64,000 nt of DNA from Lingula anatina (Eukaryota > Animalia > Brachiopoda), in the NCBI GenBank assembly GCA_051362555.1, contig CM120643.1:6634001-6698000 (forward strand), in the 5' to 3' direction. Under the pieces are notes generated by a model. It did no database searches and was not told the origin of the DNA. It saw only the letters and a program-made list of their open reading frames with translations. Position 1 is the stretch's first letter. Each line of letters starts with the position of its first letter. The position numbers were made by a program, and so were the translations under genes. Below are positions 3,421 through 60,676 of the stretch, piece after piece.

Positions 3421-4202
3421 GTAAGACAGCAGGGTCAACATAATAGGCATCTATTTATTACACTGATGGAATGTGATTGTGCATGTGTGCACACACACTC
3501 CTTACGTTGTGCCAACACATTTTACGCTTTTTGCAAGTTCAAAATGATACTTGGCAAATTTCTTTATTCTTAACAGTGGTTAGTGTGTCAATGCAGCTTC
3601 ATACATAAAGATGATGTTGCACTAATGACTTATTGAAGGTTATGTATAATTGCATCTCATAATGCCCCCCTTTCTGGCCAATTTTAATTAATTAAATATA
3701 TTCAGAAAGTGATGGCAGCATTAATATATATCCAGTTAACTAGAAGAGCTGTGTATCTACTTTCAAATAATAGTTTTACAATTTCATGTGCTTGATACAG
3801 TCATGTAATCCAAATTTTCTTTTTGTTCTTCAGTAATGCACATCCAAACTCTCCAAAACTCTACATTAATTTCAAGGATACAATGCCATCTCATCCCTGT
3901 TAAATACCAATGAACTGCAAACAAATACCTGGGTTTTTGGTATCAAAAATGTAACACAGAGCAACCCAAAAAGAATGTTAAAACTCTAAACAGATTAAGA
4001 TACATTCTTTTCTTGTAGGCAATATTTATAAGACCTTATTTGCATTTAAACTATATAATGTACCATAAAGTCCATTTCTATAATACTCAGGAGTAAGAAT
4101 TACTCAATAATAGTGTTTGTAAAAGCAGAAACTAGTAGGTAAAATACTTAATGGTTCAACATTTTAAAGACTAAAAACTAAAGGACAAAAGTAGACACCT
4201 TA

Positions 4203-5437
4203 TTATCTGTTGTTAAAATACTGAACATATGCTTCTCTTATGGCTTTGGCATCATACTGTCTCATGTCATGTCCTGGTTGGTATCCGTTATGATTTCGAT
4301 CTTCCTCCACCAAGTCCATCCACTCCTGGTCAAAGCCTTCATTGTGAACCAGAACAACATTATGCAGTGTTAAGCATGCCAGGATGAGCACTGGCACAAA
4401 TTCAGTTTCAAAATCTAGCCTGTGTTGAAGTATCTGCCATTTCCCTTTACATCTACCCAAACACCCCTCAATGCACATTCTTCCTCGCGTGTGGCAATCG
4501 TTGAAGTTCTTTTGAGCTTGAGTAAGTACATCAAAGTCTGAATATGCTTTTAACAGCCAAGGTTTGAGGGGATAGGCAGGGTCACCTATAATCAAAATGG
4601 GCACTTCTACTCCATTTATCAGTCGACTTGACGGGGGGAATAAAGTCCCACTTTCTGCCTTTTGAAAGATGCTTGACTGTGCTAGTACTTGTGCATCTTG
4701 GACTCGTCCTGGCCAGCCTGATACCACATGCAAGACTCTTAGTTCATGATCACATATCACCTGTAACGGAAAGTTGAAAAAATATACAAAATGTGACAAA
4801 ACTAAAATAATATAATAATAAATGCTGCTTCTAAAATCTAGTGAAAAAAAAAAGCCACATATAAATTAGAGCTGAACTCAACCTCCCAACATTTGAACAC
4901 ATTCCAAGACTATGAAGTTCTAATAACACAACTTAACACCACCAAAAAGTGTTGTAAAGTAATGAGGATATTTTTCATGTGTATTTGTAAGAGGGGTGGG
5001 AGTGGAATAGGTTAACTGTACTTATTGGACACCTTTTGGCTATTTAAGGACCAAGGATCCTAGAGAGAATCATGCACGCTGTATATTTATTCTCCTTTAC
5101 CTGACTAACAATGGAATAAAAACATTTCTGGTTGTAGTAATCAGTCTTGTTTTGGCTTGGAGCAATAATGGGCACGTGTGTTCCATCAATAGCCCCTGCA
5201 CATTGTGGAACAGCCCATTTGGCCTCAAATCCCTCCACAATATTTTGTAGTCTTCTCCCAGTGGGCATCTGAATGAACTTAGGAGAAAGATGGGTGGCTA
5301 TGGCCTGCACAGTTTCTTGGAAAATGGTGCAGGCTAAAGATATCTCAATTCCAAACAAATGCCCAATGCTTCTGTATTCCATACCAGAGCCACATATCCA
5401 CAGAGTCACTGCAACCCTGAGTTCTACTGAATAACAC
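4203..5437 (-). mobile_element. PIF/Harbinger DDE transposase (HARBI1-like), two exons 5437-5101 and 4760-4203; N-terminus missing
   Basis: GAIDGTH, IGDPAYPLKPWLLK and IEGCLGRCKGKW motifs give the D-D-E triad; phase-0 GT-AG intron 5100-4761 joins YSIVSQ|VICDHEL without stops. Confidence 0.9.
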
Positions 5438-5664
5438 CTACAAAAAGCATAAATTTGAGCTGTTATTGCAAAATATTAATACATAATGGCAATTCCACAG
5501 TCTTGGTTATGAATATAAAAATACTTAGCCTTACAATTTTCAATAACGACAGCAATTATCCATAATATTTTCCCACATTAGTTGTATTACTGTTAAATGT
5601 TACAGACATTTTTATGAATAATCTCCAACTTGGGAATTGCAAAATTTTGTAAACAAAAAATTTG

Positions 5665-6446
5665 AGTAGTTACATCCGTACTATACGGGAGAAAAGAATT
5701 CCATTTTTTTCTTTTGTTATGTTACATCATTTGAACAATGGAAAACCTATACCGGACAATGGGGATGTTTACAAAATAAACAAACAATTTTTTTAATGTA
5801 AACAAACGAGACTCCCTATTTTTGTTTACGTTTCACTATGGTAACGGATGACGTCACAGAACGGGCCTGGGCATGTAGGAGATTTTAAAGAATTACTATG
5901 GAAAAAGGCACAATGTAGTGATAAACAAGTAAATTTGTAAATAAAACATGATTTTATTGAAATACATAATTGCATTGTAAGTTGATCATAGTGAACAGTT
6001 GTATATACACATTAAAACATTAAAACAATGTATATAAATGTCTAATTTACTAAAAGATAATAATTATGCATAATGCAGTGCAAAGTGAGTATAGTGAATC
6101 TATCAGTTACATGCACAGATTAAAACAGCAAAACAATGCAATTATGTATTTCAATAAAATCATGTTTTATTTACAAATTTACTTGTTTATCACTACATTG
6201 TGCCTTTTTCCATAGTAATTCTTTAAAATCTCCTACATGCCCAGGCCCGTTCTGTGACGTCATCCGTTACCATAGTAAAACGTAAACAAAAATAGGGAGT
6301 CTCGTTTGTTTACATTAAAAAAATTGTTTGTTTATTTTGTAAACATCCCCATTGTCCGGTATAGGTTTTCCATTGTTCAAATGATGTAACATAACAAAAG
6401 AAAAAAATGGAATTCTTTTCTCCCGTATAGTACGGATGTAACTACT
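5665..6446. mobile_element. Foldback/MITE with ~314-bp near-perfect inverted arms
   Basis: 5665-5978 is the reverse complement of 6133-6446 (one mismatch seen); ~154-bp spacer; termini AGTAGTTAC...GTAACTACT; no clear TSD. Confidence 0.9.
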
Positions 6447-9813: not shown

Positions 9814-10378
9814 ATGAAAAAGAAAGGTTGCAATATGGCGGCTGTCTTTCTTGCTATCCGGGCCACCAGAATACAAAGGAGACAACAACGGTTTTATCAT
9901 AGAAAAAAACCATTAAAATTTATGGGCGCTGGAGAAATATTCAAAAGATTCTGCCTGTCTAGAAGAGAGGTGGATAGGGTTGTGGAGATCCTGCATGACA
10001 ATCTCATAACATCAATGAAGAGATCTCACACCCTCTCCACGCAGGTGCAAGTGCTCATTGCTTTGCAATATTTTGCAACCTGAAGCTACCAGAGAGTGGA
10101 GGGAGATGCTACTCTAGGATGCAGCAAGAGCAGCGTCTCCTGGGCCATCCACAGGGTGACAAATTTAACAGCAACATCACAACATGAGGATCTTGTTGTC
10201 AAGTTTCCTACAGATCCCAAGGAAGTTAAAGTGGCGAAGAAAGGATTTTATGATGTTGAGATGCATCGACAGGACACTCATCCCTATACTGGCTCCTACC
10301 GATGACGAGCAATATTACATCGGGAGAAAAGGCTTCCATTGCCTTAAAATACAAGCAGTGTGTCATCACAAATTGTGG
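9814..10378 (+). pseudogene. Harbinger transposase N-terminal half, disrupted
   Basis: RSHTLSTQVQVLIALQYFAT*...GDATLGCSKSSVSWAIHRVT...CIDRTLIPILAP...YIGRKGFHCLKIQAVC; contains a stop and frameshifts, ends at a GTAAGT donor. Confidence 0.85.
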
Positions 10379-10639
10379 TAAGTAGGCTAGATGTTTGAAA
10401 AAAGAAACCATCTGTAGCGCACTTGCAATGACCTTGACCATATGCAATTTGTAAACAAAAAAAACTTACACAACCCAAGTACCACATCCTCAATTACTGC
10501 AATGACCAAATGCATTGTTTGTTATTTTAAAAAGGAAATAATTTTCTATTGACTTGCCAAGTCAGTGTTATGACAATGCATTAAAGTCTTTCAAATATAT
10601 GGATTTTTAGGTATACTAAGCAGAACATTGTCATAAAAA

Positions 10640-18650: not shown

Positions 18651-19723
18651 AATCTTTTGGATGGAACTAGAGAATTGATAAAAATATTTGTGGCCCAATC
18701 AAAAGGGTACACAATTGTGCTATTCTCTCATGAGTGACATTACTTTTCAATCTCTTTCATACAGGAACTGTGCAGACCGCAGAAAATTTCTGATAAGTGT
18801 AATACTTTTTAATGAAGTCGCGGGCATAGGCACATAAGTAGTTATGTAATTGTTCCTATCACTTTAATTGATCCCAGTCAACTTTAATTTTATCTCACTT
18901 TATTATCCTTTATCGAAAGTTACAATAATTTGCAGCCGTGCGGTCTGTCACACCAATATATAAGGTATAAAACCAGGCAGCCGCCTAGAAATAAATAGTT
19001 ATAGATTTTATAACTAAGCTGTGGTGTTGCATTGCTTTTCTCTCTTGGCATAACCCAAGTCAGGAATCGTGGACCGAACCTTGAATATTCAGCAGACGGA
19101 TTAGAGACCTTTGAGTAAAATATACCCTGCAGTATCTGTAAGAACTCAGTACAGATTGGGCGACACACACGATTCCGTTTTAGGATTTTTGTTATCATGG
19201 AGAGATTTGGAGCAGCGCGCAGTGAAGATGGCTGAAGGAAACAACAATCAGGAACAAGACGCAGATATCACGCCAGGTATGGACAGGTTTGCATATACTT
19301 TGGACATTTTGGCTAAAGATTTACAAGGTAAGCAACAAAGAGTAATTAGACAAAGTAGGATAGATGACGCATCATCAGGCAATAAGTCCGTGTGACGGAA
19401 GCATCCCATCGGAGGTCTGGTCTTACATAGACAAGTTAGACGTCTTAAACGAAACAGGACACAATATTCCGGGTAGAGTAGTAAAATATATTGCAAAATC
19501 TGCAAAAGGGGCCTTGTGAGTGGATTTGGAAAGGTTTTTAAACTCCAAATCCGACAGAAACTGGATTGCTTGGCACACACTACGCAATCACAGCAACAAT
19601 TTCCAGCAACAATGTCCACCACCCATCTGAAGCTTCCGAGACAAAATGAAAAAATCCTAAACAAGGCCCAGGTGATTTGTTATTTAGAGCCCAACTATAT
19701 GACCACAACTGGACAGCTATATG

Positions 19724-20498
19724 TATGGAACGCCATTCACGCAAAAAATACACCACGCAATTTAAGAGTGTATTTTTTTTCAAAAGTGTATTTTTTTCTA
19801 ACAATGTAGTCGGATCATTCAATAACGTAGTCCCGTAATCTTATAATGTAGTACCACTCATCAAAAGTGTAATTGGAAAAGCGCCACGCATCGTGAGGTC
19901 CGCAACTCATTGCGGAGAATTCAGTATCCATGATCAGCAAATCTGAGAGCTACGTGCGGTTTGAGACAGACCTGGGCGGACAATTTACGGTTTTACCTGC
20001 CACTATTTCCTTAGGACTCAATATACTCAACCTTTGTAGCTGGTATCCAGCAGCTGAGAGTAAGAATCCTCACGATAGGTGGCGCTTTTCCAAGATAGCC
20101 AACAGATAATACAACAACAGATCGCTGCGCCATCTGGTGTCTAATGATGTCATTACTATTCTTGCAGGATTAAACTTTTGGCGCGACGTTACACTTTTGA
20201 CGAGTGGTACTACATTATAAGATTACGGGACTACATTATTAAATGATCTGACTACATTGTTAGAAAAAAATACACTTTTGAAAAAAAATACACTCTTAAA
20301 TTGCGTGGTATATTTTTTGCGTGAATGGCGTTAAACTTTTGGCGCGACGTTACACTTTTGACGAGTGGTACTACATTATAAGATTACGGGACTACATTAT
20401 TAAATGATCCGACTACATTGTTAGAAAAAAATACACTTTTGAAAAAAAATACACTCTTAAATTGCGTGGTGTATTTTTTGCGTGAATGGCGTTCCATA
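19724..20498. mobile_element. Non-autonomous TIR element, IS3EU-like (TATGG...CCATA, 6-bp TSD)
   Basis: ~150-bp TIRs; TSD TATATG at 19718-19723 and 20499-20504; right arm carries a 160-bp tandem duplication (20171-20490). Confidence 0.8.
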
Positions 20499-20504
20499 TA
20501 TATG

Positions 20505-20760
20505 GCTTCGCCCAACTGTTTATGTGGGAAACCCGCAAACCATTCAACATTTTTCCTTCAGTGCCCACTGAAACAGTGGAAATATTGTGATCTCTACGAA
20601 TCTGTTGAAGATATACTTGGTGTAACCTATGCATATTTCAGAACCCAACTAGATAAGATATCCCTGTTCCTACATGGCCAAAAACACTAACATCTGGACC
20701 AAATGATAAAATTTTTGAAATAGTGTAGAATTTCTTAATGAAAAATGTCTGAATCTTCTT
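20505..20760 (+). mobile_element. LINE ORF2 C-terminal Cys/His remnant
   Basis: ASPNCLCGKP...FFLQCP motif typical of non-LTR element C-termini. Confidence 0.55.
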
Positions 20761-43881: not shown

Positions 43882-44886
43882 AGTTCAATAATGAGACGGT
43901 TAACATGCCAAAGAATTGAAAATAGCATAGGTGACAGCAATGTACAGACATGGCTGAAAATCATATTTAAGTGAATGTTGCAATGGTGTGGGGCAAATTT
44001 TCTTCCAGCCTTCTTAAAGCTTTTATATTTGTACAACATTAATAAAATTTCCATCTGAGGACGTCTATACAAATGTCTCATGACATACAGTTTAAAGCCA
44101 GAAGGAAAAAGCATTATTATGTCTTGTATATTGTAAAATTAAAATTTATCTTCTACCCTTTTCTGAACCAAGACAGCAGTTCTTGGAATGTTGAGTACAC
44201 CAAGCAAGCCAACACAGATGTATTTCTAGGATAATGTATTAAAACAAACTGCAAAGTGCTGTTTTTGATTTTCATCTGGATTCTTAATTTCAACTCCGCT
44301 GTTACATTAACTAAGCTGTATCATTTTCCTCACATTTTTAAATACAACAAAAATATCATTATTACGGGTCAGATTATACTTGTCATGGAACTTTTTTGTT
44401 GGTTGTATTTGCCTTAGCACTTCTTTTAATTCAGTCCCTTAATCCAGTTGATATATGTGCTAACTACTATGTAATAATACAGTCTCATGGTTACGTCTTG
44501 CAATCTGTAAAGCCTACAGATTAATCAAGATTTTAAAAATCTGTTAACTGATTTCTTATTGTTAAATTAGCAACAAATAAACCAAATATTGGTATGAGAG
44601 TTCTTTGAGGAATATTTTATGTGCAAGCATGTGGGCTAAAGTTTCTGCAAACAGAACATCAGCACAAACACTATATTCAAACAGGAGGACTGACTCTTTA
44701 ATAGCGTAACATTTTATCTGGAATTATTTAGTAAACAGGAATTCCAATTCTTCATCAGAGTTGGAAAGCTTCACCCATAAAAGAACAAATATATTATATG
44801 GGTTTAATATAACACTTCATAATAAAGTTCCATCATAACTACCAACATCTATTCTGCTTTGTGTGAGACATATTCCCTCTCGACAC

Positions 44887-47800
44887 ATGGATAAGACATA
44901 GTGCTGCTCTTGGTGCTGTCTTTCACTGCCTGCATCTTCATAGTAAGGGTACTCTGGAAAAAGAACAATATAACTGAAAAAACTGAAAATAACATAGAAA
45001 ACGCTGGCAAATTCCATGACAAAAAAATAGTTAAATGTTAATAATTTTGTCAAATCTTGTCCAATATTTCTGAAATTTGTACAAATGATGCTTAACAACA
45101 ATAAAAATCTGTGATTAGATGATCTGTTGACTGCATCTAATGAAAAGTGTTTTTTGGGACAACATATTTGGGAAAACTGAAATTTACATTGAAAACACTA
45201 GCAAATCCCATGACTTAAAATAGTTAAACGTTAATAAAATTTTCAAATCTTGTCCAATATTTCTGAAATTTGTACAAATGATGCTTAACAACAATAAAAA
45301 CCTGTGATAAGCTGATCAAATGACTGTGTCTAATGAAAAGTATCTTCTTTCGACAATATCCTTGAAAAAACTGAAAAACACACTGAAAAATCTGGCAAAT
45401 TCCATGGCTTAAAATAGTTAAATGTTAATAAAATTTTCAAATCTTGTCCAATATTCCTGAAATTGGTGCAAATGATGCTTAACAATAATAAAAATCTGTG
45501 ATTAGACGATCTGTTGACTGTATCTAATGTAAAGTGTTTTTTGGGACAACATATTTGGGAAAAATTAAATTTACATTGAAAAGACTGGCAAATCCAAGGA
45601 CTTCAAATAGTTAAACGTTAATAATTTTGTCAAATCTAGTCCAGTGTTTCTGAAATTTGTACAAATGATGTTTAACAACAATAAAAACCTGTGATAAGCT
45701 GATCAAATGACTGTGTCTAATGAAAAGTATCTTCTTTTGACAATATCCTTGAAAAAACTGAAAATTACACTGAAAAATCTGGCAAATTCCATGGCTTAAA
45801 ATAGTTAAATGTTAATAATTTTGCAATGTAATTATAAAATAAAATAGCAAATGTGATGATTTGAGGTTGTTTGTGTAGGAGGTTGCAAATTACCTATAAC
45901 TGTTATCTGGAAAACAATATATACCCAAACAAGACTTCTCCTTACTATCAATGCCAGATGCAGATTACTCCTTACAATCGGTTTCTGGAATGGGTTGTTG
46001 TTATCACAACATTTGACAATGTCCTAAATCTTGCCACATATCATGTATTGTACACATGGATAAGACAGTGCTGCTCTTGGTGATGTCTTTCACTGCCTGC
46101 ATCTTCATAGTAAGGATAACTCTGGAAAAAGAAGAATATAACTGAAAAAAATGAAAATAACATAGAAAACGCTGGCAATTCCATGACATAAAATAGTTAA
46201 ACGTTAATAATTTTGTCAAATCTTGTCCAATATTTCTGAAATTTGTACAAATGATGCTTAACAACAATAAAAATCTGTGATTAGATGATGTGTTGACTGT
46301 ATCTAATGAAAAGTGTTTTTTGGGGCAACATATTTGGGAAAACTGAAATTTACATTTAAAAGACTGGCAAATCTCATGGCTTAAAATAGTTAAATGTTAA
46401 TAATTTTGTCAAATCTAGTCCAGTGTTTCTGAAATTTGTACAAATGCTGCTTAACAATAATAAAAATCTGTGATTAGATGATCTGTTGACTGTATCTAAT
46501 GAAAAGTGTTTTTTGGGACAACATATTTGGGAAAAATGAAATTCACATTGAAAAGACTGGCAAATCCAAGGACTTCAAATACCTGTAGTTAAATGTTAAT
46601 AATTTTGTCAAATCTAGTCCAGTGTTTCTGAAATTTGTACAAATGATGCTTAACAACAATAAAAACCTGTGATAAGCTGATCAAATGACCGTGTCTAATG
46701 AAAAGTATCTTCTTTCGACAATATCCTTGAAAAAACTGAAAATTACCTTGAAAAATCTGGCAAATTCCAGGGCTTAAAATAGTTAAATGTTAATAATTTT
46801 GCAATGTGATTATAAAATAAAATAGCAAATGTGATGATTTGAGGTTGTTTGTGTAGGAGGTTGCAAATTACCTATAACTGTTATCTGAAAAACAATATAT
46901 ACCCATACAAGACTTCTCCTTAATATCAATGCCAGATGCAGATTACTCCTAACTATCGGTTTCTGGAATGGGTTGTTGTTCTCACAACATTTGACAATGT
47001 CCCAAATCTTGCCACATATCATGTATTGTACACATGGATAAGACATAGTGCTGCTCTTGGTGCTGTCTTTCACTGCCTGCATCTTCATGGTAAGGGTACT
47101 CTGGAAAAAGAACAATATAACTGAAAAAACTGAAAATAACATAGAAAACGCTGGCAAATTCCACGACATAAAATAGTTAAACGTTAATAATTTTTTCAAA
47201 TCTTGTCCAATATTTCTGAAATTTGTACAAATGATGCTTAACAACAATAAAAACCTGTGATTAGATGATCTGTTGACTGCATCTAATGAAAAGTGTTTTT
47301 GGGACAACATATTTGGGAAAACTGAAATTTACATTGAAAACACTGGCAAATCTCATGACTTAAAATAGTTAAACGTTAATAAAATTTTCAAATCTTGTCT
47401 AATATTTCTAAAATTTGTAAAAATGATGCTTAACAATAATAAAAATCTGTGATTAGATGATCTGTTGACTGTATCTAATGAAAAGTATTTTTTGGGACAA
47501 CATATTTGGGAAAAATGAAATTTACATTGAAAAGACTGGCAAATCCAAGGACTTCAAATAGTTAAACATTAATAATTTTGTCAAATCTAGTCCAGTGTTT
47601 CTGAAATTTGTACAAATGATGCTTAACAACAATAAAAACCTGTGATAAGCTGATCAAATGACTGTGTCTAATGAAAAGTATCTTCTTTCGACAATATCTT
47701 TGAAAAAACTGAAAATTACACTGAAAAATCTGGCAAATTCCAGGGCTTAAAATAGTTAAATGTTAATAATTTTGCAATGTGATTATAAAATAAAATAGCA

Positions 47801-49190
47801 AATGTGATGATTTGAGGTTGTTTGTGTAGGAGGTTGCAAATTACCTATAACTGTCATCTGGAAAACAATATATACCCATACAAGACTTCTCCTTACTATC
47901 AATGCCAGATGCAGATTACTCCTTACAATGGGTTTCTGGAATGGGTTGCTGTTATCACAACATTTGACAATGTCCTCAATCTTGCCACATATCATGTATT
48001 GTACACATGGATAAGACATAGTGCTGCTCTTGGTGCTGTCTTTCGCTGCCTGCATCTTCATGTTAAAGGTACTCTGGAAAAAGAACAATATAACTGAAAA
48101 AACTGAAAATAACATAGAAAACGCTGGCAATTCCATGACATAAAATAGTTAAACGTTAATAATTTTTTCAAATCTTGTCCAATATTTCTGAAATTTGTAC
48201 AAATGATGCTTAACAACAATAAAAACCTGTGATTAGATGATCTGTTGACTGCATCTAATGAAAAGTGTTTTTTGGGACAACATATTTGGGAAAACTGAAA
48301 TTTACATTGAAAACACTGGCAAATCTCATGACTTAAAATAGTTAAACGTTAATAAAATTTTCAAATCTTGTCCAATATTTCTAAAATTTGTAAAAATGAT
48401 GCTTAACAATAATAAAAATCTGTGATTATATGATCTGTTGACTGTATCTAATGAAAAGTGTTTTTTGGGACAACACATTTGGGAAAAATGAAATTTACAT
48501 TGAAAAGACTGGCAAATCCAAGGACTTCAAATAGTTAAACATTAATAATTTTGTCAAATCTAGTCCAGTGTTTCAGAAATTTGTACAAATGATGCTTAAC
48601 AACAATAAAAACCTGTGATAAGCTGATCAAATGACTTTGTCTATGAAAAGTATCTTCTTTCGACAATATCTTCGAAAAAACTGAAAATTACACTGAGAAA
48701 TCTGGCAAATTCCAGGGCTTAAAATAGTTAAATGTTAATAATTTTGCAAAGTGATTATAAAATAAAATAGCAAATGTGATGATTTGAGGTTGTTTGTGTA
48801 GGAGGTTGCAAATTACCTATAACTGTTATCTGAAAAACAACATATACCCATACAAGACTTCTCCTTACTATCAATGCCAGATGCAGATTACTCCTTACAA
48901 TTGGTTTCTGGAATGGGTTGTTGTTATCACAACATTTGACAATGTCCTAAATCTTGCCACATATCATGCATTGTACACTTGGATAAGACATAGTGCTGCT
49001 CTTGATGCTGTCTTTCGCTGCCTGCATCTTCATGGTAAGGGTACTCTGGAAAAAGAACAATATAACTGAAAAAACTGAAAATTACACTGAAAAATCTGGC
49101 AAATTCCAGGGCTTAAAAAAGTTAAACGTTAATAATTTTGTCAAAGCAGTCCAATGTTTCTAAAATTTGTACAAATGATGCTTAACAATA
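44887..49190. repeat. Higher-order tandem repeat: ~194-bp monomers in ~973-bp units with an embedded non-monomer segment
   Basis: CTGGCAAAT..TAAAATAGTTAAA recurs every ~194 bp; segment ATAAAATAGCAAATGTG...CTCTGGAAAAAG recurs at ~45840, 46815, 47790 and 48760. Confidence 0.95.
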
Positions 49191-49488
49191 ATTTAAATAT
49201 ATGTTGGAATTTACAACAGGTGACTATATACAACTTTTTAAATAGCAGTATATGAATCGGCTGTGCAACAATTTTTGAAATGGAATAATATCTGTAATTT
49301 AAAAGCTGGAACATAATTTTCTATCTTATTTTCTAACACAGAAGTTGAAATTTTCTGCATAAAATGAACCCATTCATGAGTGTACTAAATTGACAAGCAA
49401 TCTTTACAGCTTCAGAAAGGCCATTACCCAGTGCACTACCTGACAACCCATTTCTTTGATATCCATGTTCATTCTAAGCAATACTTAC

Positions 49489-49603: not shown

Positions 49604-49959
49604 CACAGGAAGACAATAAAAAATACATCTTTAAAACAATTTACTTTATTTTCAAGTGTCTTAAAACTGTTCCTTCAATTTCTTTGACAAAGCAATAAAA
49701 TACCTGGGTAATTTACATTAAAATTCTTACATCATTAGCAGCACAAATTCACCTAAATATCTGGCATTACATTGAACAAGATGAAAAACTTGCTGAAAGG
49801 CTGTGATTAAGCAGCATTACAGATTCAAAAAACACACTGAAATATGTAAAAAATCTAGAAGACAATGCAATCACCTTATGACGATTTATGAAACTCTATT
49901 GTTATCTGACCATCTTAAAAATAAGTCTGGAGTCATTGTCTTTTATTTTTTTTACTTTA

Positions 49960-50545
49960 GTATAGTCCCATGTCTCCTAGTACAGTGTAGTAGTCTGGAG
50001 TCATTGTGTTCCATTGTGGCAGTATAGTCCCGTGTCTCCTAGTACAGTGTAGTAGTCTGGAGTCATTGTGTTCCATTGTGGCAGTATAGTCATGTGCCTC
50101 CTAGTGCAGCGTTTTAGTTTGGAGTCAGTATTCCATTGTGGCAGTATAGTCCTGTGTCTCCTAGTACAGTGTAGTAGTCTGGAGTCATTGTGTTCCATTG
50201 TGGCAGTATAGTCCTGTGCCTCCTAGTACAGTGTAGTAGTCTGGAGTCATTGTGTTCCATTGTGGCAGTATAGTCCAGTGCCTCCTAGTACAGTGTAGTA
50301 GTCTGGAGTTATCGTGTTCCATTGTGGCAGTATAGTCCTGTGCCTCCTAGTACAGTGTAGTAGTCTGGAGTCATTGTGTTCCATTGTGGCAGTATAGTCC
50401 TGTGTCTCCTAGTACAGTGTGGTAGTCTGGAGTCATTGTGTTCCACTGTGGCAGTATAGTCCTGTGCCTCCTAGTACAGTGTAGTAGTCTGGAGTCATTG
50501 TGTTCCATTGTGGCAGTATAGTCCTGTGCCTCCTAGTACATAGTA
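49960..50545. repeat. 62-bp minisatellite, ~9.5 copies
   Basis: TACAGTGTAGTAGTCTGGAGTCATTGTGTTCCATTGTGGCAGTATAGTCCTGTGYCTCCTAG in tandem, no variable spacers. Confidence 0.95.
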
Positions 50546-51637
50546 GTACAGTGTAGTATGGAGTCAGATGATAGACTGGAAAAGACAAAAAAAGTCAATG
50601 ACCAGGGTTTTTCCTCAAGATCCAGAATATTAGAATTACATCAAATAAACTGGAAAGAAATATTTTATAAAATAAATTTACCAATTAAAGTATTGTTGTA
50701 AGTCAACGCTCAAGCATACACTGTACCAGTACTGATATTAAAGAGGTGGGTTTATAGTGCTTTCTGAAACTCGGGATGGTAGTGCTAGTTCACGTAAGTG
50801 GACACGCCATGGGAAGTTTTAGTTGTTCATAGTTAAGTTCATATATTACTATTTCGACAGATGACTCAAAAGAAACAATAAAAAGGCCCACTTAAAAATT
50901 ATATAAGAAGGAATAACGTCAGTTCTTCATTTTAATGCCTCACCATCATAAGACATTGGGTAATTGCAGATGAAAAGGGAATGGCAAAACTGAAGTAGAT
51001 GACTGCGTGAAATCTTGCTAGATCTCCAAAAGCGCTTTTATTCTGCACCGTCAACATTCTGAAGCATTTTGTAAAATCTTCACCAGCACATTGCATCGTG
51101 ATGTGAACAGTGAACAACTGACACAGTCGATACCATATGTATCCGTCACTTTAGATGTCTCATCCTGAATTCACCGATTAAGTTTGTCAATAGAATCTAT
51201 AACAAAACCATCTAAGAAAAGTGTCCTGATGTATGGTGAAACTCAGTGTGCAGAACGTTTGATGAAAATTCCGACTTTTCAGCGTTACCCTTTGCCTAGT
51301 CTACGCCATATAAATATTGTTTAGTATAGATGGCGCTATGCAAGAGGTGAGACTTAGGATTTATAAAGGACTGCGGCCAGTATCAGCAACAGGTTCACCG
51401 CCTGCTTTCTAAGAAACTCGTGCGAGGAGGGAGAGAGTTCTGGAACCGCAATAGATATGACCAGGCACTGTGACATATATTGCGATATTTAGTAGAAAGA
51501 CTCAAGGTCGAGAGCTTCAACGAAGTGTCAATCTGATTGGTTTAAAGTTAAGGAAACAATACAGGAACCGTCCAATGAAATTCTTTTATACAATAATTAT
51601 TCCTGTTTATTGTTTTAGTAAACAAAGCAAAGAGACA

Positions 51638-53802
51638 ATGTCTACACAGTCGCTGGTAAGTTTTATTTTTTTTTTCAAAACTGAAATTCTGTAGCAAGTT
51701 CAATGTAAGCCCACACAGCGCCTTTTTATCAGTCGTTCATGATTTTTATGTGATTAATTAATATTCTAAATAAAATTCTTAAAAAATTTCTTGTCACATG
51801 ACGATTTGCTGATCATTCTGGTAATGGTACAAATGTAGTTTACATCACAAACTACCAAATAAAGATACATAATTGTATGTATCCCGTTAACATGATTTCT
51901 TTAATTTATTGTACATATTGCAGATGATAGCTGATATGGAAAATGAAATAAATAAAGAAGAACAGTGTGCTCGTAAGTTGTGTGCGTGTTTGTATAATCA
52001 GACTGTATGTGTTTTATGGCTCAGGATAGGAAACAATGGAAAAAGCATGCTGAGGCCTTTGTCCAACAGTGGAACACTATAGGCTCTAAATGATGATGAT
52101 GATGATGATGTGTTTTATAGTACAACGGGCCTAAAACTACTCTTGCAATTTTTTGTTGTTATATAAATGAAAAGAGATTTAATTTGTTCATAATAAGAAA
52201 GTAAGATATCCTATTCTTTATTTACATTAATTAAGTGATCAGTTTGAATGTCTGTAATGTTAATATCAAAAACGATATATTGATAGTATTTCTTTCTATT
52301 TTACTTTTTGCTTTGAACAGCCAAGGCCACTGTAAGAGTTTTCTTAACCAACAACTATTTAAAGGCCAAAGTGGTGGGCAGGGGAACTGCCCTCGGGGGA
52401 TGGGACCCCCAGAAAGGTGTGAACCTGTCAAGGTTCACTGATATGGGGGTCCCATCCCTCAGGGCAGAGTTTCTCCTGCCCAAGGGCTCAAATATAGAAT
52501 GGAAATTCATTAAGCCACAAAATGTAAGTATGAGACTTTTTTTTTTTTACAAAAATAATGATCTCAGGTAAAAACGATTTTCTTTAAAATTGAAAAAGAA
52601 AATTTGAGGTCTGATACGTTTAAGTATTTATTATAACCTTCATTCATTTCTTCTAGTGACTGTGTATTTGAATTATCAGTGATTGTATATATTAGTAAAC
52701 ATTTTATTTTTCATTTTAGACATTAACCTATCTTAATTTAAGTTATTTATTTTATTGTTTTTTCATTCATTCATTCATTCTTTAAATTTATTCAGCCTTA
52801 CCACCCTGGGTCTGGCTGGACATGGGAGCCTGAACCCTTTAGGAATGGGTGCCTCAAGGTGACCACTAAGGACAGCATGGAAGTGACCTGTACTTGGGGA
52901 GAACTGGACATGGAAATAAAAGGTGCTTGAACTCATAATTCTTGTAACCTTTTAAATCTGTCATGTACAACATTTGGAAATCTCACTATCCTATAAAAAA
53001 CAGTAGAAAAATGATGAAATGGTCCTTTATTATTGTCAAATACATTTAAGACTTTATTTTAGTGTATATCATAACTTTTAAATAATAAATAAAAGATTGA
53101 ACACACATAATGTTGATTTGAAAATTCAATTTAATTCTGTTCTTTCAGTTGATACCAAACTGAAAGACAAGAACAATGTAACACCTGTAAACCCACTAAG
53201 TATGGAGGAGATAGGTAAGAGAGGAATCTCAGTAAAATAGTTATGATTTTTAATATACTTATGAAACATGCATGCACACACACACATACACTAACAAACA
53301 CACATGCACACACACACATACACACCACAAGCATGTTGCTCAAGCAAAGTCTTTAGCATAATTAAGAAGATAATTTATTTTTAGTCATTAAATATTTGAC
53401 TATGTCTTCCATAAATTGTAAAACTGAATCCTATTTGAACATGCACAGATATGGAATGTTAAGTTTTTATTCGATATCATTTTTCCTTTAGCCAATATCA
53501 AAGACTCAGAGATTGTGTCAGATGCTGAGGGCATCAAAGAAAAAGGTAAGACAATAAGCTTAGGACAATCTAACGGGGAATTAACACACACAGATGGACT
53601 TTAGGTGGGAGACTCTCACACACAAACACTGAGTTTAAATTCACTGTTAGTGATCTAAATTTTTGAATGTGTCTTTGACTTTGTTAAATAATGTATTGAA
53701 TTCTTGTTGTGCACAGGTATGAAATGTTTAATTTGTTTTCCTGTCTTTCTTCAGTCAATATCAATGACACAACAACTGTGAAAGCAGACGTGAAGGAGAG
53801 AG
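51638..53802 (+). CDS. CBM20 starch/glycogen-binding domain protein with micro-exon repeats (exons 51638-51655, 51924-51972, 52321-52523, 52796-52922, 53149-53214, 53492-53545, 53755-53802); 3' end truncated or read-through
   Basis: All introns GT-AG and phase-consistent with no stops; VVGRGTALGGWDPQKGVNL...LPKGSNIEWKFIK...WTWEP...N...VTCTW matches the CBM20 consensus. Confidence 0.8.
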
Positions 53803-53906
53803 GTAAGACAGTAGGGTCAATAGTCTGTTTGATAAAAGCTCTTGCACTACTTCTGGAATTGCATCACTTAGTAAAAGGTTCCACTGGCAACAGAGCACTA
53901 ATTTTT

Positions 53907-54778
53907 TTAAAACTTAACAAGCTGTGTCTTCTCCTGCCTGTGAGCATCCTCTCCAGCCTCATTTTTTGAGAAAAGTAGGCAGTAACCATACACACAAACT
54001 GCCTTCAGTGTCTGGAACACAAACAAGTCCTCCACCAGTGCCACTCCTACCAGAGCAGCCCAGTTGTACACAGCGCTATCACTCAGCTCTCCGCCATACA
54101 CAATGCTGAGATATACTGCCATAGCCATGGAGACGCCTAGCAAAATGAATGCTGGATAGATCAAAAAGTGGGGCAACTTTCCGTCCTGCTTTCTGTTGAC
54201 CATCATCTCCAGTGACTTCAGCTCAGTGTATGGCACCTCATCTGATGGTTCTGGAACATTTTGTGTGGAAATGAATTATTGCCAAAAGTATGTGGAAGTT
54301 TAACTAAAAAATGATGCCAGCTAATATTACCCCTGTTTAACATCACAATCACTGTTTTATTATAAGGGCAAGGAAGCTTATGTTGAAATCAATGCTCTAA
54401 ATATCTTCAAAATGTAAGCTGAAGCTGGATAACATGAAAATGCATTATCCTTTTTTTATATATTCATTCTTTTTAAAAATAATTTACTGAAATGACAGAC
54501 ATTGATGATACCAAAATGGACAATTACCTTCCCAAATATTAACTGCTACATCATGTGCATTGTCTTTCCTCTTGCTGTTGTCTAAAATTGCATTAAACAA
54601 GGGATATGTAAAGGGAAATATAAAAAGTTATTTGTTTGAGCCATATATTGCTATTGTGGAACATAAATTAGGAAACAGTAAATCAAAATTTTAGGATGTT
54701 ACATCTGTTCTACGCTATCAAAAAGGATTAAAAAACATCATCATATAGACATGTCTACAGCATAATATAATGGCATAC

Positions 54779-54815
<37 letters not shown>

Positions 54816-55555
54816 TACCTGGGATGAGAAAACTTGGGTTGAAGTGAGCAATGAGACTGTAAAAAGATGAAACATCTGCATTTCTGTAGCTGGAAATCTT
54901 CCCAGCATGGGATTTTGGGATTTCTGCCTGCATCTCCTTTTGCATATTTGAGTTTAGCCTAGGGTTGTTAGGAGGAGGAGCATATGTGTAGCTGGGTGTT
55001 TTCTGAAATATTGAAAATCATCCAATAATTGATTCTGCTGACTGGTTAATATAGTCAAAATATTCCACAGATGGGGACATTTATTCTGGTGTTGGTTTGA
55101 TATTGCACTATAATAGCTCAATATTAGTATAATGTCTTTTTATGTTCTTGTATATACATATGTGCTTGTAAGTCAAGCCAAATATATTGTCAAACATTAC
55201 AGAAATGATACAAATGTCTGTTTTTAATTACAAGAAGGCAATACAAGTATGTCTCAAAAGCAATCCATGATATCTGTACAGGCACATACATGTATGCACA
55301 AACTAAAAACAGAAAAAAAGTAATAAATACCTCTTTCTTGCTGTCCAAATCTCCCATGGCAACCATATCTTCCTTGACAACCAAATTTTCCTTGGCAACC
55401 ATTTCTTCAATCTGTGCCATAGCCTGGTGTTCAACAGTTGCACGTGCCAAATCATAGCCCTTCTCAAAGTCATAAGCCACCTGTTTCATCATGGTCTCCA
55501 CACTTCCATGCCCAACTTGTTGGAACCCATCACTGATTGTGCAACTGCAAAAAAA

Positions 55556-55589
<34 letters not shown>

Positions 55590-58500
55590 TATAAATCTTT
55601 CTTAAATCAAGAAATATAGTGAAAAATTAGTATTATTGGTAAAATAACACTCTGACTATAATTACTAACTCCATTTACACACTCAGAACATGTGTCACAT
55701 TAGCAAGAACATGTGAAATCATTATAATACGATTAATAGTCTACAAAATGAAACAAGTGTCCAGCCCAATACAAGTTGTCAGAATCAGTCATGGCTATGA
55801 GCAAGACCTGTGGTCAACTCCCAAAGCTAAAGACAAATTTAACTTTATTCTAACATAACTGTGAAATGAGGAGTCTTAAAATGAACATGAAATAATACTG
55901 TCATCATACTGAGGCTCATCTTCCAGGCTCTGCAGCATGGTGTCACCAGTGTCCTCTCTGTCATAGCACCTGATATTGTACATTGCTACATCATATATGC
56001 CATTCACAAGGAATGTTCCTATATTGACAAGGAGGCTGGAGAGGAAGATACCTCTATCAAGCTGAATGACACCAACAGCACTGAGAAGGGTACTGGTAAG
56101 CAGCATGTTTGCAAACATGTAGTTCAAGGTGCTGTTAAACCACAGAAGGACAGGGGCCAGCTTTAAGCTGGAACAGCGTGTCCATCCATGACAGGACCAC
56201 AAATACAGAAGGCAAGTTTGCAGTCCAAACCTGAAATAATTTTAATAAATTAAAAAATTTATATCAAATATCAAAGTACAGACATTTTACATGAAAATTA
56301 CTACGAGTACATTCCATGTTGAAAAAAAACTGAATACTGCATTAAAAAATCAGAATATGTATCATTATTATTATTATTATTATCTTTCGTATTTTATTCG
56401 TTGATAACTTGTAAAAGCAGACATTTCAAAGTACATCATATGCTTATTTATCAATTGTGAGAAAGTCTCCAACTTACCTGGAGTTCTTACAAGACTCCAA
56501 AGTGGTGTATCCCACTGTGAGGCATCCATTGCTGCTGAAGTGGGATTCACAGCCAGATACTGTATCATATACTGTTATATCCAGCACATTCCTTCAATGA
56601 AAGAAAAATAATAATAAAAATTCACTCAAATTTCTTTATACAACACATTTAACAATCAATATTTCAAATAAATCTGGGCTTCCATCCATCTAAACTGAGA
56701 AGCTAGCTAACATTTTTTTTTTTTCAAAAATGCATAAGAATATGTTAAATTGACATTGAACTCCATCTGAATATGTAAAAATATCTACTATAAATAACAT
56801 AACATTATGAATATAAGTTAAACTACAGATGCATCCAAGGTATTCATGACACAAAACATATTTCAGAACAATGACAAAAATAATCTTCATTTGATTTGCA
56901 GAACTTTCTTTATACAGGTCCAATAGTGTAAATATGTTTGTGATGTTCCAGTTTGTATTTTTAAAATTACCATTGAGCTCCTGGTCTATCACTGATGTAC
57001 ACCACAACCTTCTTCAGTTTTCCCAGGGACTCTGAGTTTAAAATAAAAAAGATTCACTATAATGATTAAATGTTAGTGTGTTGTTTTAGAGTACAACATG
57101 CATCAAATAGCCCTCAAAGATCCCTGAGGTCTGGTGACAAACTTTTACTGAAAGTTCCCAAATCAAAGTTAAAAACATATGGTGACATATCTTTTTGTGT
57201 AGCTGCACCAGTAGAGTGGAATAAGTTGCCAATTTTTATTAGACGAATAGATACACAAGAATGTTTTAAAAAGGAATTGAAAACTCACATTTTTAAGACA
57301 TTTTATTCATGAATTTTTAATTTTACATTAAAGAAACCTTGGATTTTTTACTTTTATTACTGTTTATTACAATTTAGACTAGTTCTGATTTATATAATAT
57401 ATATCTTCCGTAACTATTTTTATTTATAAACTTCTTTGTATTTTATGTTGTGCAGTCTATTGAACATTTTATGGATTTTAGACTCGAACTAAATATATTA
57501 TTATTATTATTATAAATATAACAGAGTTGTAGTTTAATTCTAAAAATAAATTTAGTTAATACATAATAATACCATAAGAACCCAGTTTTACAAATCACCA
57601 AGTATTCTTGCACCAACTCTCTCTGAACATGCTCTGCACTTAACTTTATGATAAAAAGTCAACATAACTGAGTTAACATGATACTTTAAGTAATAGTAAT
57701 CATATATAATATAGCCACTGACTGAGATGAACAGCAAACTGCGACCTGATGTTCCAGTTAAGACTGTACATGCTGAATTGAATGTAATAAAGTAAATGGC
57801 AGTTAGTTGCTAATTATACTGTTGAATCAATATTTGCAGGAAAAGAAATTTATATGTGCTCCAAAATATTCAAGATACATACCTTTTGTATACAAAAGAA
57901 ACCATTTCTTCTGTCCTACCCCAAGGAAATTGTGCTTCCTCCCATGTTCATTCAGATTATATTCAGGAGATACCCCCTGGTCTCCTATCAACTGCAATCT
58001 GACTTTGGGTGTCTTTACTGCTACAAAACAACATATTTCTATAGTTTGGAATAAATTCAGTTAAATAACAACTTCAACAATTATATACAACTGTAAGACT
58101 CTTGATTGGCTATATCTCTATTTCTATTTTTGTCATTTAAATATTAAAATATATAATAATTATTATTATTACCTTTCACACAATGATAACTAGTTTAAGC
58201 TTTTCAACAAGGATCAGAATCAATAACTTGAAAGATCTTAGCATCACTTTTACCTCTTTTCAGCCCATTTTGAACTGCTACCATGTATCTATAGTAATGT
58301 TCACCAGAATATTTGGGAACAACTATGATACCACTCTGCTTTCTCTGAAATGATAATGACCACTATAATTATAAGACAAAGGAAAAGAAAGGAAATGAAA
58401 GGAAAGAAATGTAAAAATAAAACAATAATGTTATGAAACTGATTACAGCAGAAACAAAGCAATTTCCAGTTCTTCATCATAATTACCTATTTTATATTTT

Positions 58501-59129
58501 AAAGTTATCTAACACAGAAATTCATAAGGATAACTGTTTTTATACTTTCATGCAGACTAAATTTAAAATGTACAACACAAAATTTTGTTTCAGTACCTTC
58601 TTCCAATTGCACCAAATAATATAACTTTTGTTGAGTAACATAAGGCCCAAAAACGCAAAGATGAATACAAATGCGAGTTTTTGGTGCACCATGAACTTTT
58701 GTGGAGCTTTTTTCAAGGCAAAAGCTAGCAAAGAAAAGAAAGGATGTAGCTTAAAAATGGAAAGCAAGGAAGTAACCAAGGGCAAAGAGAAGTATAGGAA
58801 ACACGATTAATTTAAATGAATATAAAAAATAGAGAAAGTAGGGTCTAATGAATTAGTCTCAAACAAAAGAAAACAAAAACACAAAGTAAGATGCTGAATG
58901 CATGGAATTTTGACAAACCAAGTTTAAAAAAAACATCACAATTTGTGCTAAATGAATGGTGAAAAAAACATTGGTTCCCCGTGAGTTGTTTTAATGTATA
59001 TCGCCTGCTTTGTAAACAAAAAAGGTGCAAAAGAGTTACATAAGTCTATAGTTTGATGATATACTTACCTCCATGGAGAGGTTGCATGAGTAGCAACATC
59101 AACAAAACTTTGATCTTCAAGTTCTTCAT
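53907..59129 (-). CDS. Polycystin-1-like PLAT/5-TM membrane protein, ~569 aa, 11 exons (59129-59069, 58724-58597, 58344-58254, 58020-57883, 57031-56971, 56591-56478, 56230-55910, 55544-55331, 55002-54819, 54581-54528, 54250-53907)
   Basis: Hand-spliced 1710-nt ORF with GT-AG, phase-matched introns. Signal peptide MKNLKIKVLLMLLLMQPLHGAFA; TM1; PLAT-like YRYMVAVQNG...VRLQLIGDQG...SLGKLKKVVV...WNVLDITVYD; PKD1-like TM4/5 LPHFLIYPAF...IVYG...W...FVFQTLK. Confidence 0.8.
57070..57513 (+). mobile_element. L2/CR1-group LINE 3' end in intron 4 of the PKD1-like gene
   Basis: RSLRSGDKLLLKVPK..LKTYGDISFCVAAPVEWNKLP...FKKELKTHIF, then 3'UTR and (TAT)n tail. Confidence 0.85.
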
Positions 59130-59576
59130 ACTGGCAATTTTTTATATGTTCTCCCTGTATCAAATAATATGAAGCCGTGTACAACAAACACGTATATTTA
59201 AAAAATAAGTCGCGATTCAGCGAATAAACGAGAAATTATCGATATTTCAAACAATTTGGACGGAGTTGACTTTGACTTCCGCCCAAATCTCACAAATGTC
59301 TGTTGCTAATATTGACGTCACAGACACAATCAGCTCACGTGACCATTGTGCTGGGATGTGCGGTTGTGATGTTAAAACAGCCAAATCGATAAAACAATAA
59401 TAGTTATAAATAACATTCACCTTAAAGGTTCACTGCACAGCCTGATTGGGGCTTTAATAAATTACTTTGAAGAGGATACGTATGGTTTATGTTATTTGTC
59501 GTATTTGTTTGAATATATGTATATAGTTCTACTTAAATAGAAGACAGCGGAAGACTGGCTACACTAAAATCATTAG

Positions 59577-59800: not shown

Positions 59801-60367
59801 TAAAGGTTAGACATGAATCTCAGCAATATTATTATTACTTAAATACACATCTGAATCCTGCACATGTGCACACACACACACGCGCGCACTGGTATATGCA
59901 CACTATATTGCAGAGCACAATTTAGCCTTTGATGCCGAGAACTGGAGTAGTTTTCAATGGATGTCAACGTAAACGACGCAGATGTGTCAACCTCATCCAC
60001 CAGATCCAAAGGCGTTCCAAAATGAGCCCAACACACTTAAAATATTTCATACAAAGTTTAAATACCTCTACTGAGTATGTAAAATTCAACAAGTATGTAA
60101 AAGTCAAGATTTCGTTGCTGTCAGTCACAAGCAGGTACCTCTGTCTAAACGGCCTTGACCTATAATCGTATTATTTGACTAGAGTCTATGCCAATCTAAG
60201 TGTACATATATTTAATTTCATGTCTTCACCATGATTTTCTGTCGCAAAAGATGTCATAAATAAATAAATAAATAACCACACTAGAATGACTTTATTTTAT
60301 AGTTTGATATGAGTGTGGTTTGTGACTGCATTGATGTTGGTAACAGTTAAGGCAATTCATTTTTGAA

Positions 60368-60676
60368 CGGTGACAAGTGGGTCGAGTCCAATCGATTTGA
60401 GGAGTTACAGGTGGGACGATTCCATTCTATATGAGGGGTGACAGGTAGGGCGAGTCCATTCCATTTGAGGGGTTGCAGGTGGGGCGAATCCATTCCATCT
60501 GAGGGGTGACAGGTGGGCCGAGTCCATTCTTTTTGAGGGAGTGGCAGGTGGGGCGAGTCCATTTCATCTGAGGGGTGACAGGTGGGGCGAGTCCATTCCA
60601 TTTGAGGGGTGGCAGGTGGGGCTAGTCCATTTCATCTGAATGGGTGACAGGCGGGGCGAGTTCGTCCGATTTGAGG
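60368..60676. repeat. 34-bp G-rich minisatellite, ~9 copies
   Basis: GAGGGGTGACAGGTGGGGCGAGTCCATTCCATYT in tandem. Confidence 0.9.

Follow-up and report, generated by a model that had tools for sequence, protein, structure and literature searches.

Among the described systems closest to the gene analysed here are the polycystins of the PKD1L2/PKD1L3 type. These proteins have 11 transmembrane helices (TM), and representatives from sea urchin (P0025) and sawfish (P0028) share with it the order TM1-PLAT-TM2-3-loop-TM4-5 and can be aligned with it in sequence. PKD1L3 also lacks the REJ domain (PMC1934368). Family members without a channel are known as well. In sea urchin, SpREJ7 and further short SpREJs are channel-less PKD1-family proteins, verified by cDNA, with 1, 2 or 6 predicted TM (PMC1934368), and frog, newt and scallop have PKD1L2-like proteins (XP_063294958, XP_069072060 and XP_033756196, computational models only) that run GPS-TM1-PLAT-TM2-5 and end in a short tail. 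For polycystin-1 (PC1), the parts of PMC9672506 drawn on here report that PLAT binds phosphatidylserine, PI4P and beta-arrestin and that the protein is cut in the TM5-S1 loop. The parts of PMC9171645 drawn on here describe a C-terminal fragment with a short extracellular tethered stalk before TM1; the stalk acts through TOP and the pore loop on the C-tail, and one of its contacts is to TM5.

The gene considered here lies on the minus strand of a 64,000-nucleotide stretch of Lingula anatina DNA (hereafter the window). Compared with the PKD1L2/PKD1L3 type, its protein has no REJ, GPS, TOP, channel or long C-tail, and its PLAT domain is highly diverged. The SpREJs, in contrast, retain REJ and GPS (PMC1934368), the frog, newt and scallop proteins retain GPS and fall outside the Lingula branch in the tree, and the PC1 C-terminal fragment, as far as PMC9171645 is drawn on, retains TOP, pore loop and G-protein tail. 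A preliminary description did not recognise the architecture from earlier work. Its novelty is narrower, since polycystins that have a GPS but no channel had previously been annotated or published (e.g., SpREJ7, PMC1934368), while no printed account of a form lacking both ends was found. On balance, and with moderate confidence, we read the window gene as a recent, weakly transcribed copy from an old, Lingula-specific PKD1L2-type branch that lacks GPS/GAIN and channel, a family that probably consists of non-conducting five-pass membrane adaptors.

Gene model and transcription

The 569-aa frame of the preliminary description was rebuilt exactly from 11 minus-strand exons with AG/GT ends and 0 internal stops, but its openness hinges on an exon 7 donor at 55910 or 55970, both of which preserve the frame; the earlier donor also leaves it open and yields a 549-aa variant. 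In the 569-aa model, the hydropathy maxima are 1.43 (signal), 1.99 (TM1), 1.69 (TM3), 2.13 (TM4) and 1.61 (TM5), and merely 1.03 for TM2. The RNA evidence consists of raw runs labelled as the same species, with sense depth and spliced joints read in X1, X2, X3 and X5; the spliced-joint table of one read mapping was swamped by poly-G artefacts. The gene is transcribed weakly. The reads confirmed 2 of the 10 introns (54250/54528 and 58020/58254), but exon 2 had no sense reads in any of the four runs.

A probable 5' leader with the region of the transcription start occupies 59170..59359 (sense depth 0.73 in X1, 1.13 in X3), and sense depth is 0 at 59360-59549 in all four runs. The first ATG below 59345 is at 59129. 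Exon 1 (59069..59129) encodes 20 residues resembling a signal peptide and ends in a phase-1 donor; the same 20 residues begin the NCBI model P0008. Hydropathy suggests that they form a signal peptide, and their similarity to the signal peptides of old Lingula paralogues is not significant (p 0.09 and 0.95). At 59074 the exon holds a further ATG, in a different frame, where P0002 and P0006 start. Exon 3 (58254..58344), with a basic juxtamembrane segment and the start of PLAT, is joined by reads (2, 4, 2 and 0 in X1, X2, X3 and X5) to exon 4 (57883..58020), a PLAT exon also matched by P0015 in tblastn (E 4.9e-6). Exon 5 (56971..57031) continues PLAT and exon 6 (56478..56591) ends it; both agree with paralogue models at low read depth. 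Exon 7 (55899..56230) encodes TM2, TM3 and the start of the cytosolic loop; reads reach at least 55938, and the donor is uncertain. The loop continues through exon 8 (55331..55544; paralogue models and reads), exon 9 (54819..55002), which has 34 codons fewer than in P0002, P0003 and P0006, and exon 10 (54528..54581). Loose read ends at 55333 in X2 and X3 correspond to the longer paralogue type. Reads (4, 1, 1 and 0) join exon 10 to exon 11 (53907..54250), which encodes TM4, TM5, a short tail and the stop and has tblastn and Atlas structure matches; its stop codon is identical in P0001, P0002, P0004 and P0006. The 3' UTR (53716..53906) is indicated by a sense depth of 0.67 (X2) in the bin 53716-53969 and a candidate ATTAAA at 53732, with sense depth 0 in 53462-53715 in all four runs of a mapping that included X2 and X4. 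The surroundings are repeat-rich and resemble transposon debris and tandem arrays.

Exon 2 (58597..58724), predicted to encode a stalk remnant and TM1, carries the only placement of TM1 in the window gene's protein. Its zero read count is weak evidence because exons 5 and 6 likewise reach just 1-2x pooled depth; a depth of 0.22 in X4 falls in a bin mixing exon 2 with intron and is not assignable to it. The exon is present in 0 of the 8 close NCBI models, among which exon 1 is spliced to exon 3 in two and to exon 5 in one, and skipping it brings a stop 34 codons after the first ATG. Exon 2 is open, in phase with its neighbours, and aligns at the TM1 position of relatives. Against a 13-sequence TM1-PLAT profile it ranked first among 39 open pseudo-exons, with 23 of 500 shuffles scoring equally well, and against a 2-sequence profile it ranked fifth, with 64 of 500. 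The homology is marginal, with shuffle p of about 0.05-0.13 for profiles and 0.06 and 0.29 in pairwise comparison. Across the whole of P0015, it matches the juxtamembrane-TM1 segment best; across P0010, its best match falls outside TM1.

PLAT, membrane helices and the missing domains

The PLAT-like domain noticed earlier is borne out by its fold, though its Pfam score in P0002, a paralogue 91% identical, is below the cut-off (E 4.5e-4, 21.3 bits, cut-off 23). On the AlphaFold model of P0002 (overall pLDDT 52.9; PLAT mostly 73-92; TM4-5 about 60-76), it matches the 5-lipoxygenase PLAT with Z 15.5 and rmsd 2.0 A over 115 residues. These fold searches covered the PLAT part alone, and the matches listed included no PC1 chain. 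In the alignment, the PLAT no longer carries certain motifs that the canonical rows retain, a Trp near its end among them, and its lipid binding may be gone. The polycystin nature of TM2-5 was upheld: alignments show these helices to be homologues of the N-terminal membrane module of PKD1, exon 11 is matched in tblastn by the PKD1L2-type P0028 (E 1.1e-6) and by P0010 (E 3.3e-12), and the Atlas gave structure matches to PKD1L2 clusters (TM 0.59 and 0.54) and a feature match of 0.92 to a PKD1L2 cluster. PDB sequence searches returned chance matches only.

The stop stands about 20 aa past TM5, so that TOP and the six-TM TRPP-like channel part of the 11-TM proteins are missing. No exons for GPS, REJ, TOP or channel were found in the window, in agreement with the proposed lack of both ectodomain and channel. 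In tblastn of 12 relatives (6 of them channel-bearing) against the window, only exons 4 and 11 gave matches below E 0.01. Pfam found no trace of these domains in 129 flanking ORFs (64/64 upstream of at least 25 aa, 65/244 downstream of at least 45 aa); this blank is weak because Pfam also missed PLAT on 8 single exons, and tblastn is the better test. GPS/GAIN was absent from the model, the 64 upstream ORFs (at low sensitivity), the tblastn of the window and the old Lingula paralogues, and REJ from the model, the flanking ORFs, the same paralogues and the tblastn.

Lingula relatives and the age of the architecture

The gene's nearest relatives belong to Lingula anatina itself and comprise 8 almost identical models and old paralogues with about 30% identity. 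A phmmer search of 1.84 billion representatives gave 28 matches, the best of which beyond the young clade were Lingula proteins with 29-34% identity; word-based searches returned Lingula proteins alone or nothing, and neither approach found a relative with this architecture outside Lingula. The old paralogues XP_013396612, XP_013418419, XP_013409301 and XP_013412713 (uncharacterised) are likewise without GPS and channel by Pfam, which finds only PLAT in P0009, P0010, P0013 and P0015. Where complete, they stop right after TM5, as the window gene does. The complete one has a signal peptide, an ectodomain without GPS or REJ, TM1-PLAT-TM2-5 and a stop. P0010 (1764 aa) opens with a signal-like stretch, followed by some 295 residues lacking Cys; then come TM1, PLAT, TM2-3, a long loop and TM4-5, and the protein terminates just past TM5. 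P0009 and P0019 terminate no more than a few residues from that helix. In contrast to the window protein, P0010 and P0015 have a Ser/Thr-rich ectodomain of about 300 aa, and the loop of the old paralogues is about 1000 aa, without similarity to the window protein by blastp.

Young and old Lingula rows formed one branch in two midpoint-rooted trees, supported at 100/100 for PLAT-TM3 (18 rows) and at 91/89 for TM4-5 (15 rows); long branches may inflate the grouping. The window gene groups with P0009, P0010, P0013, P0015 and P0019, and it too terminates after TM5. Therefore, the loss of the channel is old and not due to the neighbouring duplication. A mere truncation by that duplication had been proposed as a refuting scenario, and it was rejected: the duplicate 53092-53823 is part of a convergent plus-strand unit, the stop position is common to paralogues far older than the duplicate, and paralogues about 30% identical have the same architecture. 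The stand-alone TM1-PLAT-TM2-5 module without GAIN or channel thus holds as a real lineage-level architecture. The stem of the young clade amounts to 1.28 changes per site, over which frame and helices were retained, and this implies long past selection.

To our knowledge, the functions assigned to the TM1-5/PLAT half of polycystin-1 mainly concern trafficking via PLAT, and no autonomous function has been assigned to it. It is quite possible, if short of probable, that Lingula long kept genes for only the five-helix/PLAT module of PC1, from the GPS to the TM5-S1 cut, whose young form is minimal, with a signal peptide replacing the GAIN ectodomain, and which would stand alone, either acting by itself or attaching in trans to channels of the PKD2 type. 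Together with the channel-less forms of frog, newt, scallop and sea urchin, the Lingula family suggests that the module separates from the channel repeatedly. A gene family encoding just this half offers a construct made by nature in which to ask whether it can fold, traffic, signal or bind PKD2 by itself. What is of value is the family, above all XP_013396612, the old paralogue that is complete, rather than the possibly decaying window copy.

Mechanism and rival explanations

In the adaptor reading, the signal peptide and TM1 would place both PLAT and the TM3-TM4 loop, which is long and polar, on the cytosolic side. PLAT may bind anionic lipids or trafficking partners, by analogy with PC1 (in the parts of PMC9672506 drawn on), and the loop may act as a docking platform. 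A P0010/P0015-like ancestor likely gave rise to the young subfamily by losing an ectodomain of low complexity, roughly 300 aa long, together with most of its loop; the subfamily would then have multiplied in repeat-rich DNA, with copies that now seem to be drifting under relaxed constraint. A split polycystin, whose five-pass module would attach in trans to PKD2 or to a channel-only PKD1-like chain as an auxiliary or inhibitory subunit, is improbable. The protein ends at the cut site in the TM5-S1 loop reported for PC1 (in the same parts of PMC9672506), and TM4-5 are still recognisable in old paralogues; however, the PC2-binding coiled coil known from the sources as drawn on lies in the absent C-tail, and no partner gene was found in the window by tblastn. 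The earlier proposal of a permanently exposed tethered agonist, read as a constitutively active receptor, is very improbable. Predicted signal cleavage would put the new N-terminus inside the stretch that matches the post-GPS stalk, P0015 has a short motif in common with it (shuffle p 0.008), and TM5, to which one stalk contact of PC1 is made (in the parts of PMC9171645 drawn on), is retained. The idea nevertheless fails because the protein lacks TOP, the pore loop and the G-protein tail, which carry the PC1 signal in these sources, and because its stalk is no more than a degenerate remnant: 16 residues, about half the 30 in the post-GPS stalk of 5 canonical relatives, without the first conserved hydrophobic residues and with lysines at hydrophobic positions (manual register). 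The conserved post-GPS stalk and acceptor (TOP or 7TM) of tethered-agonist receptors such as the PC1 fragment or adhesion GPCRs were not found here, and in old paralogues the equivalent segment is buried under the 300-aa ectodomain. Least likely of all is a longer PKD1L gene with GAIN and channel exons that the model or the window fails to include. The window takes in just 4.9 kb upstream of the gene, and a few sense reads with several mismatches lie at 59812-60300; yet sense coverage ends by 59359 upstream and by about 53716 downstream, no read joint leaves the weak donor at 53919 named earlier as a possible route to channel exons, the stop is shared by four close models, and tblastn and Pfam gave no trace of GAIN or channel domains.

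That the window copy makes the full-length 569-aa form is unproven. A less favoured but substantial alternative to the adaptor reading is that this copy, perhaps with the entire young subfamily, descends by duplication from a mini-polycystin that once functioned, is still transcribed but decaying, and yields no stable full-length protein. It would account for the unseen exon 2 with the annotated splices around it, for the few reads and for the debris-like surroundings. In 8/8 close models, exon 7 extends further, to the donor homologous with 55899; in the window copy this donor is 1 nt out of frame and leads to a stop at codon 327, although donor 55910 or 55970 leaves 569 codons stop-free and the 1-nt difference may be an assembly error. 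Three of the 8 close models (P0005, P0007 and P0008) stop short of TM4. Read variants comprise 19 replacement and 6 silent changes, a pN/pS of 0.9-1.25 that is inflated because alleles and paralogues are mixed; a value of 0.2 or less was rejected (P <= 0.0005). The young copies appear to be drifting under relaxed constraint, and the window copy may be decaying. Against decay, besides the weakness of the missing exon 2 reads, TM2-3 is the least divergent part among the models (3.3% vs 8-13% elsewhere). The 1-nt difference adjoins a microsatellite and a poly-T run.

Gene model and identity of the domains

Rebuilding the gene from eleven minus-strand exons (59129 to 53907) gives an open frame of 569 codons, equal to the length in the preliminary description, with AG and GT ends at every intron. 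The hydropathy profile opens with a signal-like segment; exon 2 (58597..58724) contributes a single helix and exon 7 a pair, the first of them weak (1.03), and a polar loop precedes the last two helices, in exon 11 (53907..54250). With exon 11 as the query, three Lingula anatina proteins were found at 88–96% identity. Their clusters added four further close models, and the full phmmer search (28 matches) added an eighth, P0008. This suggests that the window comes from Lingula or a very close relative. Among these young models, some could represent alleles or duplicated haplotypes, because the older Lingula assembly is extensively redundant according to the available part of the 2026 genome paper (PMC13121700).

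The PLAT-like domain and TM2-5 of the preliminary description were both borne out. In the close model P0002, PLAT scores slightly below the Pfam cut-off; in its AlphaFold model, built on a 24-row alignment, the domain resembles the PLAT domains of lipoxygenases and lipases (best Z 15.5, rmsd 2.0 Å, 115 residues). The TM4-5 part is matched by PKD1L2 clusters among the Atlas structures (TM 0.59 and 0.54) and by tblastn from the sawfish relative P0028 (E 1e-6), and TM2-3 can be aligned with the relatives at the sequence level.

Absence of GAIN and channel, and its age

The window was compared by tblastn with twelve relatives, of which six carry channel domains and four have a Pfam GPS; at E < 0.01, they matched at exons 4 and 11 only, in agreement with the described lack of an ectodomain and a channel. 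That the gene is a fragment of a longer one is extremely improbable. Sense reads enter the 3' UTR with none below 53716, and they extend upstream to the bin 59170-59359 with none in 59360-59549; the stop codon position is common to four close models, and a fifth ends 14 residues earlier. A handful of mismatched sense reads at 59812-60300 might favour the fragment.

The next best matches after P0008 include five old Lingula paralogues with 29–40% identity (P0009, P0010, P0013, P0015 and P0019); Pfam finds PLAT alone in four of them and no domain in P0019. P0010 is complete, with a signal-like start, an ectodomain of ~295 residues without Cys (Ser+Thr 18%), TM1, PLAT and TM2-3; after a very long loop come TM4-5 and a stop. 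P0009 and P0019 end where it ends. In midpoint-rooted trees with long branches, the Lingula rows, young and old alike, form one branch (support 100/100 for PLAT-TM3, 18 rows with P0019 and P0034 omitted; 91/89 for TM4-5, 15 rows), with ~2.4 changes per site between the two groups. This grouping dates the loss of GAIN and channel to before the young copies arose and before the neighbouring duplication. Mere truncation by the adjacent duplication, the scenario raised against the original idea, is ruled out, since the old paralogues of the same branch already have this architecture. The near-absence of an ectodomain in the young copies is likely a later step.

PKD1-family proteins without a channel have been published for sea urchin, with GPS kept, in the part of that paper available (PMC1934368), and are annotated in frog, newt and scallop. 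They resemble the window gene in lacking the channel but, unlike it, all have a GPS. The architecture had been called unrecognised; this holds for the double loss of GPS and channel, which did not appear in literature searches at the level of listings, and not for channel-less forms with a GPS. Neither "polycystin" nor "PKD" occurs in the main text or supplementary files examined of the Lingula genome paper (PMC13121700), and the evolution of the PKD1 group is called poorly known in the available part of the catshark paper (PMC11979771). Among P0039, P0040, P0022 and P0029, spadefoot toad and newt models have GPS-TM1-PLAT-TM2-5 and stop ~25 aa past TM5, at nearly the same place, which suggests a channel-less PKD1L2-like paralogue conserved in amphibians. 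In a second toad model, the channel-less module is fused to a full PKD1L3.

Possible role of the product and condition of this copy

The product is best read, with a slight leaning on our part, as a five-pass membrane adaptor that would keep PLAT and the long polar loop on the cytosolic side of the membrane. It cannot fill the usual channel-subunit role because it lacks TOP and S1-S6 as well as the coiled coil of the C-tail (PMC9672506). A permanently exposed stalk acting as a tethered agonist had been proposed. In PC1, the signal of the stalk passes through TOP and the pore loop and on to the C-tail, as given in the available part of PMC9171645; here, TOP is absent and the stalk is a 16-residue remnant, compared with 30 residues in five canonical relatives. 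The mechanism is therefore unlikely, and we consider such a receptor very improbable. A half-polycystin acting in trans seems improbable.

A more serious possibility, which we still regard as rather unlikely, is that this copy is decaying instead of encoding an adaptor. Exon 2 has no sense reads in the RNA runs X1, X2, X3 and X5, where exon 3 reaches a pooled depth of ~7x, and is present in none of the eight close models; however, coverage is also thin on exons 5 and 6, at just 1–2x. In X4, a depth of 0.22 in the bin holding exon 2 cannot be assigned, and X7 has next to no reads on exons. The described exon junctions are upheld by reads at two of ten introns (4/1/1/0 and 2/4/2/0 reads in X1/X2/X3/X5), counts that include paralogue reads since 90% likeness was accepted. 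The models P0002 and P0006 begin with an ATG in the final nucleotides of exon 1 (59069..59129), which is spliced to exon 3, and P0008 splices the signal frame of exon 1 to exon 5. In the window gene, the exon 1-3 splice stops the first-ATG frame after 34 codons, so the exon-2 form is the sole topologically sensible one. About 4% of comparable pseudo-exons in the window (9/216, counting exon 2) are open and hydrophobic, and a separate test of exon 2 was therefore required. It ranks 1st of 39 open pseudo-exons against a 13-sequence profile (23/500 shuffles equal or better) and 5th against a 2-sequence profile (64/500), which amounts to modest homology support.

Exon 7 is longer in all eight close models, and the corresponding window donor leads to a stop at codon 327, unless splicing takes place at another exon 7 donor or the assembly contains a one-base error. 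Thus, the "uninterrupted" frame is open as modelled and is closed with the donor of its relatives, which again speaks for decay. So does the pN/pS of 0.9–1.25 from 25 exonic read variants (19 replacement and 6 silent, adjacent changes counted singly), but this value mixes alleles and paralogues.

Surroundings of the gene

A convergent transcribed unit of short repeated exons lies on the plus strand at 52830-53823, 52-1136 and 3353-3438, with a GT..AG joint at 53543-53753 in X1 and X2 and a duplicate at 403-1136 (80% identity). At the last exon seen, the unit overlaps the 3' UTR of the polycystin-like gene. At 59270-59345, the 5' edge of read coverage, there is what we take to be a cluster of E-box, CRE-like and ETS-like motifs, and a repeat in intron 4 (57080-57650) collects, on both strands, numerous reads that originate elsewhere. 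A tandem array at 44883-49198 has a ~975-bp unit made of 193-bp subunits; each unit holds a minus-strand exon-like piece preceded by a strong acceptor, for which Pfam gave no match. Minisatellites are found at 49959-50548 (62-bp, 9.5 copies) and 60362-60676 (34-bp, 9.2 copies). A 314-bp inverted repeat (5665-5978 / 6133-6446, 99.7% identity) looks like a young non-autonomous transposon, and so do other near-perfect repeats, direct and inverted, at 19715-20507. The ORF pieces at 4203-5475 (-) and 9814-10381 (+) look, by eye, like parts of Harbinger-type DDE nuclease genes.
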